Shown here: in pieces, positions 13,703-59,230 of the stretch
Layout of the letters: each line of letters starts with the position of its first letter
Position numbering within the stretch: the first letter of the stretch is position 1
Source: Squalus acanthias
Taxonomy: Eukaryota
Assembly (NCBI GenBank): GCA_030390025.1
Contig: CM059425.1
Location: 112,716,001 to 112,780,000, forward strand
Direction of reading: 5' to 3'
DNA length: 64,000 nucleotides
Position numbers and translations under genes: made by a program
The notes under the pieces: generated by a model
The model's database searches: none
What the model was told of the DNA's origin: nothing
The model's input: only the letters and a program-made list of their open reading frames with translations

Positions 13703-59230
<45,528 letters not shown>

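Follow-up and report, generated by a model that had tools for sequence, protein, structure and literature searches.

A Ty3/Gypsy element of Squalus acanthias with YLDN in place of YxDD belongs to a metazoan clade in which an Asn-type reverse transcriptase is probably active and self-primed

How can an LTR retrotransposon that looks newly inserted carry a reverse transcriptase (RT) with Asn in place of an aspartate of the catalytic YxDD motif? The question arises from a 64-kb stretch of the Squalus acanthias genome (contig CM059425.1; the window), for which the original prediction reported YLDN instead of YxDD within an uninterrupted 1315-aa open reading frame (ORF), together with identical LTRs and a perfect target-site duplication (TSD). 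All of this is real, and the motif (TAT CTG GAC AAT, residues 627 to 630 of the frame) lies at 48885-48896, one base inside the originally given 48884..48898. Our preferred reading of the sequence evidence, at a probability of about 0.88, is that the window element is one of thousands of young Ty3/Gypsy copies from a metazoan clade with Asp/Asn switching at the third catalytic RT position and that the Asn enzyme is a working polymerase that copies the element and is primed by the element's own RNA.

The LTR element measures 4478 nt (window 46734-51211), its 194-nt LTRs are 100% identical, CCCAC stands on both outer flanks, and a single frame is open on the + strand. Its parts are as follows.

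46729-46733, no strand: left target-site duplication CCCAC (5-bp TSD)
46734-46927, + strand: 5' LTR, 194 nt, TG...CA, identical to the 3' LTR
46801-46807: TATA-like ATAAATA in the 5' LTR
46874-46884, + strand: 11-nt LTR arm, complementary to the primer-binding site (PBS), holding ATTAAA (a poly(A)-signal-like hexamer); predicted self-primer
46929-46939, + strand: PBS, 1 nt downstream of the LTR, lacking a TGG start and pairing with 46874-46884
47007-50954, + strand: single Gag-PR-RT-RH-IN ORF, 1315 aa
47697-47783, + strand: Gag double zinc knuckle, a pattern shared by 89 of 120 homologues
48003-48266, + strand: aspartyl protease, aa 333-420 (Pfam)
48699-48701, + strand: first catalytic Asp of the RT, D565 (motif A), kept
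48885-48896, + strand: YLDN, with D629 kept and N630 replacing the third catalytic Asp (alignment on Ty3 RT)
49293-49661, + strand: RNase H region, with D771, E808, D833, and D880 all present
49686-50396, + strand: integrase (Pfam)
50945-50983, + strand: 39-nt stretch that sister copy L047 lacks, a repeat of the LTR start preceded by a purine-rich site
51006-51017, + strand: polypurine tract
51018-51211, + strand: 3' LTR
51212-51216, no strand: right target-site duplication CCCAC

The direct TG...CA LTRs, polypurine tract, and short TSD are Ty3/Gypsy hallmarks, and the domain order behind Gag is also that of Ty3/Gypsy (protease, 333-420; RT, 523-676; RNase H, 742-864; integrase, 894-1050; Pfam). 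The best PDB sequence match of the RT is Ty3 RT (4ol8; E value of 1.7e-53). No Pao family match, which would indicate BEL/Pao, was found with Pfam, and the Pfam matches, like the best PDB match, are of the Ty3/Gypsy type. None of the nine Pfam matches is a chromodomain at the integrase C terminus.

In the integrase of the window copy, a codon is missing between the second catalytic Asp and Glu (50079-50080), which gives D(34)E spacing, whereas D(35)E is found in all 43 evaluable other copies; the window copy may be integrase impaired, from a cause unrelated to YLDN. The LTR-start fragment at 50945-50983 follows an internal purine-rich site 71 nt upstream of the true 3' LTR and alters the end of the ORF. 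It is inherited, since it recurs in one of seven other family-A loci (L046), and it looks like the product of a template switch or a misprimed plus strand. An exon matching residues 485 to 512 of glycine dehydrogenase (GLDC; E value of 1.4e-12) lies 1.7 kb downstream on the same strand (52965-53048), and the element therefore probably sits within a GLDC intron. Elsewhere in the window, a tandem repeat array of ∼2.9 kb (29636-32505) produces long spurious ORFs, and the regions 7699-12475, 22076-27850, 33055-36114, 42368-44865, and 62012-63222 hold what we take to be remnants of LINE-type RT/endonuclease (FADD motif) and of a Harbinger-like transposase. No tRNA genes were found in the window.

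YLDN aligns without gaps on the YLDD of Ty3 RT, which places Asn at the third catalytic aspartate: of the canonical three-Asp set of YxDD RTs, D565 and D629 are present and N630 occupies the third place. The predicted RT-RNase H fold is ordinary (AlphaFold2 model with a pLDDT of 86.4; best fold matches, cauliflower mosaic virus and Ty3 RTs), and a fold says nothing about activity. In the alignment, DN rows almost always retain the motif-A Asp, D629, and all four RNase H acids. Across 191 rows of the clade, the third catalytic position is only D or N and D629 is invariant. The premise that the second Asp of YxDD is very highly conserved calls for a qualification: Ty1 and Ty3 tolerate Asn at this site in vitro, and it is in vivo that they do not.

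The most trivial explanation would be a base-call error or a mutation private to the window copy. A census of its family (family A), based on the exact 30 flanking bases with a free codon at the site, recovered an Asn codon in 2178 of 2182 genome copies. The remaining four do not include Asp, because a DD pattern would have matched them, yet it found only one copy, which belongs to another family. All 29 best-scoring sister copies likewise have YLDN rather than the YLDD that would have marked a private change, and 13 of them are open across all 1266 codons covered, although selection by score biases this sample to young copies. Error or private mutation can thus be set aside as exceedingly improbable without recourse to reads.

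A clade-wide degenerate motif retrieved 3248 DN copies versus a single DD copy, and reversed-pattern controls retrieved none. At least three families (A, B, and C), whose synonymous codons differ, are represented among the DN matches. Among the 20 loci fetched, some copies of families A and B have LTRs that are 100% identical, TSDs, and full-length open frames, while copies of family C are older (LTRs 95.6 to 98.6% alike). Two of the copies, L033 (family B) and L050 (family A), are inserted in tandem-repeat arrays.

An abundance of young DN copies could also arise if the DN enzyme were dead and its copies were moved in trans by the DD-type RT of another element, as the original prediction had allowed for a defective copy. 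The same Asn kills transposition of Ty1 and Ty3, DD families exist elsewhere in the clade (some as clusters with hundreds of members), and a helper with other flanking residues can escape pattern searches. Against this, four patterns yielded no intact in-clade DD copy in the genome; the sole DD copy, which shares 95% identity with a copy of family C, is decayed: it contains a frameshift and a stop and lacks a second LTR. Three extra matches of wider DD (YFDD) patterns were considered as helpers and rejected because they are not RT, and an alanine-flanked DD pattern had no match in the genome. Comparison of single copies gave an RT pN of 0.10 and a saturated pS of 0.80 for A versus B and a dN of 0.11 and dS of 2.35 for A versus C, and dN is near 0.11 among the three DN families. 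Such low dN values alongside high or saturated synonymous divergence, with no DD helper detected, indicate long-standing purifying selection on the DN RTs. A passenger RT would not hold a dN of 0.11 while synonymous sites saturate, nor would it remain DN across several phyla, as described below. We therefore regard mobilization in trans as a very improbable explanation of the YLDN site, and the evidence favors the other proposal made originally, a lineage of naturally DN-type RTs, which is supported by genome copy counts, homologue counts, switching on the tree, and selection on the RT.

The DN state extends well beyond the dogfish. The best 120 of 1125 homologues comprise 95 with xxDN and 25 with xxDD, and the best 80 of 482 metagenome loci comprise 67 DN, 10 DD, and 3 decayed loci. 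Among representatives at 50% clustering (the best 150 were taken, and 149 cover the motif), the 98 with ≥42% identity (rounded) include 49 DN, 46 DD, and 3 others, and the 51 with ≤35% identity, which are distant Gypsy RTs, are all DD. Among the Gypsy RTs retrieved, DN is confined to the clade of the window element. Named DN hosts are soft corals, a sea anemone, a stony coral, prawns, a copepod, a tunicate, and a catshark (Xenia, Paramuricea, Actinostola, Acropora, Macrobrachium, Palaemon, Caligus, Styela, and Scyliorhinus); named DD hosts are Trichuris, Macrosteles, and Apostichopus. In each of eight clusters examined, the members covering the motif all share the D/N state of their cluster, so that both DD and DN are family-level states. 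No relative was found in viral contigs. Five clade members (L132, L133, L135, P0091, and P0105) occur in bacterial MAG records, labelled as bacterial transposases, and are most likely host contamination.

The distribution of the two states was mapped on a FastTree phylogeny of 242 rows, which returned long-branch warnings and from which 27 of the 149 representatives had been dropped as short or gapped, including one NN and one GN row. The clade consists of 191 rows on one side of a branch with a support of 99. Its first-branching 23 rows are all DD, and DN lies inside a subclade of 168 rows (support of 99). The D/N label requires 14 changes on this tree, with at least 8 forced by well-supported branches, compared to 80.6 for shuffled labels, and DD groups are nested within strongly supported DN groups. 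We read this as Asn having been gained once or a few times and Asp regained several times. Some of the switches separate close relatives; the natural DD/DN pair P0074 and P0078, for example, is joined by short branches at a support of 100.

A second question is how such an element would be primed. The 11-nt PBS begins one base past the LTR and is complementary to 46874-46884 within it; in families B and C, the match grows to 12 to 13 nt and uses different bases. Like self-priming elements, those of the clade have a PBS complementary to their own LTR (11 to 18 nt, with compensatory changes across families) and, putatively, not to a tRNA 3' end. In an unselected test, the duplex signature was present at 17 of 20 genome loci and at 17 of the 45 metagenome loci whose upstream DNA was long enough, against 0 of 65 control windows; all three metagenome loci of the DD type in this test lacked it. 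GTDB contigs provided six further loci: three DN loci with the duplex, one decayed DD locus with none at the expected place, and two loci without the motif. In an alignment of 18 elements, 11 of 14 pairs show compensatory changes, a count reached by none of the 500 shuffles and none of the slid controls; these elements were picked for showing the duplex, and their figure of 90% paired is inflated by that choice. The window hairpin alone folds weakly (z = −1.6). The covarying LTR-PBS duplex in the clade suggests self-priming. The near-identical LTR families L097 and L099, both of one assembly series, show clean covariation: between them, a single base pair of the PBS duplex has changed, with compensation.

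The same duplex could instead hide the poly(A) signal of the 5' LTR and so prevent premature cleavage, with the primer being something else, e.g., a tRNA half. In many of the 18 aligned elements, an AATAAA/ATTAAA-like hexamer lies within or at the end of the LTR arm, which is situated ∼50 to 60 nt before the end of the LTR. Moreover, use of the TATA-like ATAAATA would set the arm ∼40 nt inside the RNA, which suggests an internal arm rather than a 5'-terminal one. Nevertheless, the partner arm begins 1 nt past the LTR end, at the exact primer site, with the 3' end toward U5; the arm sequence shifts between families with compensation in most pairs, which a fixed tRNA would forbid; and no PBS among the 18 aligned elements starts with TGG. 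We consider it doubtful that concealment of the signal replaces priming, although the two roles are compatible and the duplex can serve both.

The original prediction also raised a possible link between DN and self-priming, and a strong form of this link holds that Asn is an adaptation, favored since the enzyme starts from the element's own RNA-RNA duplex. A self-complementary PBS is indeed present in the clade: the duplex occurs in all three DN families here and in many DN relatives, and among the Gypsy RTs retrieved DN occurs only inside this clade. A whole-contig scan of 11 DD loci, however, found the duplex in two YLDD relatives from other hosts, L070, with 15 nt, and L114, with 12 nt truncated by the end of the contig; the remaining nine loci are short or decayed. 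The duplex is therefore a trait of the clade and not of DN, as far as so small a sample can tell, and the proposed link is weak. DD lineages are, in addition, nested in well-supported DN subclades, and self-priming is known from other elements, namely, Tf1/Sushi, Tcn1, and TAR, whose RT motif is DD. Asn as an adaptation to self-priming is accordingly improbable; DN and self-priming share a lineage, and coupling between them is unlikely.

What, then, might permit Asn? Many residues set the clade apart from the outgroup and are constant in its DD as well as its DN rows: Q511, S531 with a longer loop, G604-V605 (motif B), W718, and, in the RNase H region, Q834 and K850-N851-K853. Motif B has thus gone from NAP to NGV, the fingers loop is changed and lengthened, and many residues of the RNase H region are changed. 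No residue tracks the D/N switch; across 725 column-residue tests, the highest score was 4.2 of 8 independent pairs. G604 was considered as a compensating residue because it is enriched in DN rows (124 of 127, versus 43 of 64) but was rejected, since it shows no difference in ∼7 of 8 independent pairs. Since no residue follows the switch, we infer, rather than identify, a permissive background that preceded Asn, after which the site would have drifted between two workable states. Suppressors of Ty1 D211N map to RNase H, which makes the RNase H changes of the clade a lead.

We propose the following. (i) D565 and D629 would hold the catalytic metals, and N630 would retain its supporting role, in primer positioning or pyrophosphate release, well enough. 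(ii) Changes across the clade that predate the first Asn would have made the site tolerant. (iii) A cut in the RNA just 3' of the LTR arm would free a primer end pointing into U5. The copy numbers and the selection on the RT make activity of the Asn enzyme in nature likely. Only tentatively, and at less than even odds, we extend this to the whole Gypsy clade, which may have rebuilt RT and RNase H as a natural suppressor background that makes the third catalytic carboxylate optional. Its priming may start from a duplex internal to the RNA, by a route separate from that of Tf1, and the same duplex may conceal the 5' poly(A) signal. For annotation, the consequence is immediate: filters that require YxDD will call thousands of young elements dead.

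Among the literature matches listed, there was no report of DN in Ty3/Gypsy, the search having subscription journals, Repbase, and GyDB outside its scope and possible places of record. The accessible parts of PMC3601003, PMC2836005, and PMC8556966 gave no name for the clade, “SP-clade” had no match in the literature searched, and “Selgy” was rejected as a name because it denotes a plant clade. A Cigr-1 clade of Ty3/Gypsy is listed for a tunicate and molluscs in the available portion of PMC6238403. It is metazoan Gypsy, as is the clade of the window element, which has a tunicate member (Styela, YLDN), a likeness by description only; no Cigr-1 reference sequence was among the homologue matches.

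The self-primer of Tf1 is the first 11 nt of its RNA. Unlike such a 5'-terminal arm, the arm of the window element stands some distance before the end of the LTR, where it overlaps a poly(A)-like signal, and its place in the RNA may be internal. The elements for which self-priming is described in the accessible text of PMC6317226 (Tf1/Sushi, Tcn1, and TAR) resemble the window element in having no tRNA-type PBS and a PBS complementary to their own LTR, but Tf1/Sushi elements are chromoviruses and the window element has no chromodomain match in Pfam. Among the literature matches listed, there was no case of self-priming in a metazoan non-chromovirus.

Natural Asn at this site already has a precedent in another superfamily, which tempers the surprise. 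Nematode belpaoviruses (BEL/Pao), e.g., Atlas of Ancylostoma ceylanicum, carry YVDN and, like the window element, combine a natural Asp-to-Asn change at the second YxDD aspartate with intact LTR elements and identical LTRs, according to the available part of that account (bioRxiv 10.1101/2021.11.23.469668). They differ in that they have env and that YVDN is a distinguishing feature of the group, whereas the Ty3/Gypsy elements described here have no env and their site switches back and forth.

The closest experimental counterparts are mutants with the same residue at the position of N630. As far as the accessible reports go, Ty1 RT D211N keeps polymerase activity in vitro, with kpol down 223-fold and a preference for Mn2+, but does not transpose, and transposition recovers to 5 to 10% with RNase H suppressors (PMC2148107); Ty3 RT D214N remains active, at lower processivity, but abolishes transposition (PMC5371799). 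Why RTs conserve the third aspartate is a question raised by these Asn enzymes, which polymerize in vitro and yet cannot transpose. In contrast to both mutants, the lineage of the window element amplifies with Asn, has thousands of young copies in which the residue is fixed, and offers matched natural DD and DN enzymes, such as P0074 and P0078, with which to approach this old question of the active site.
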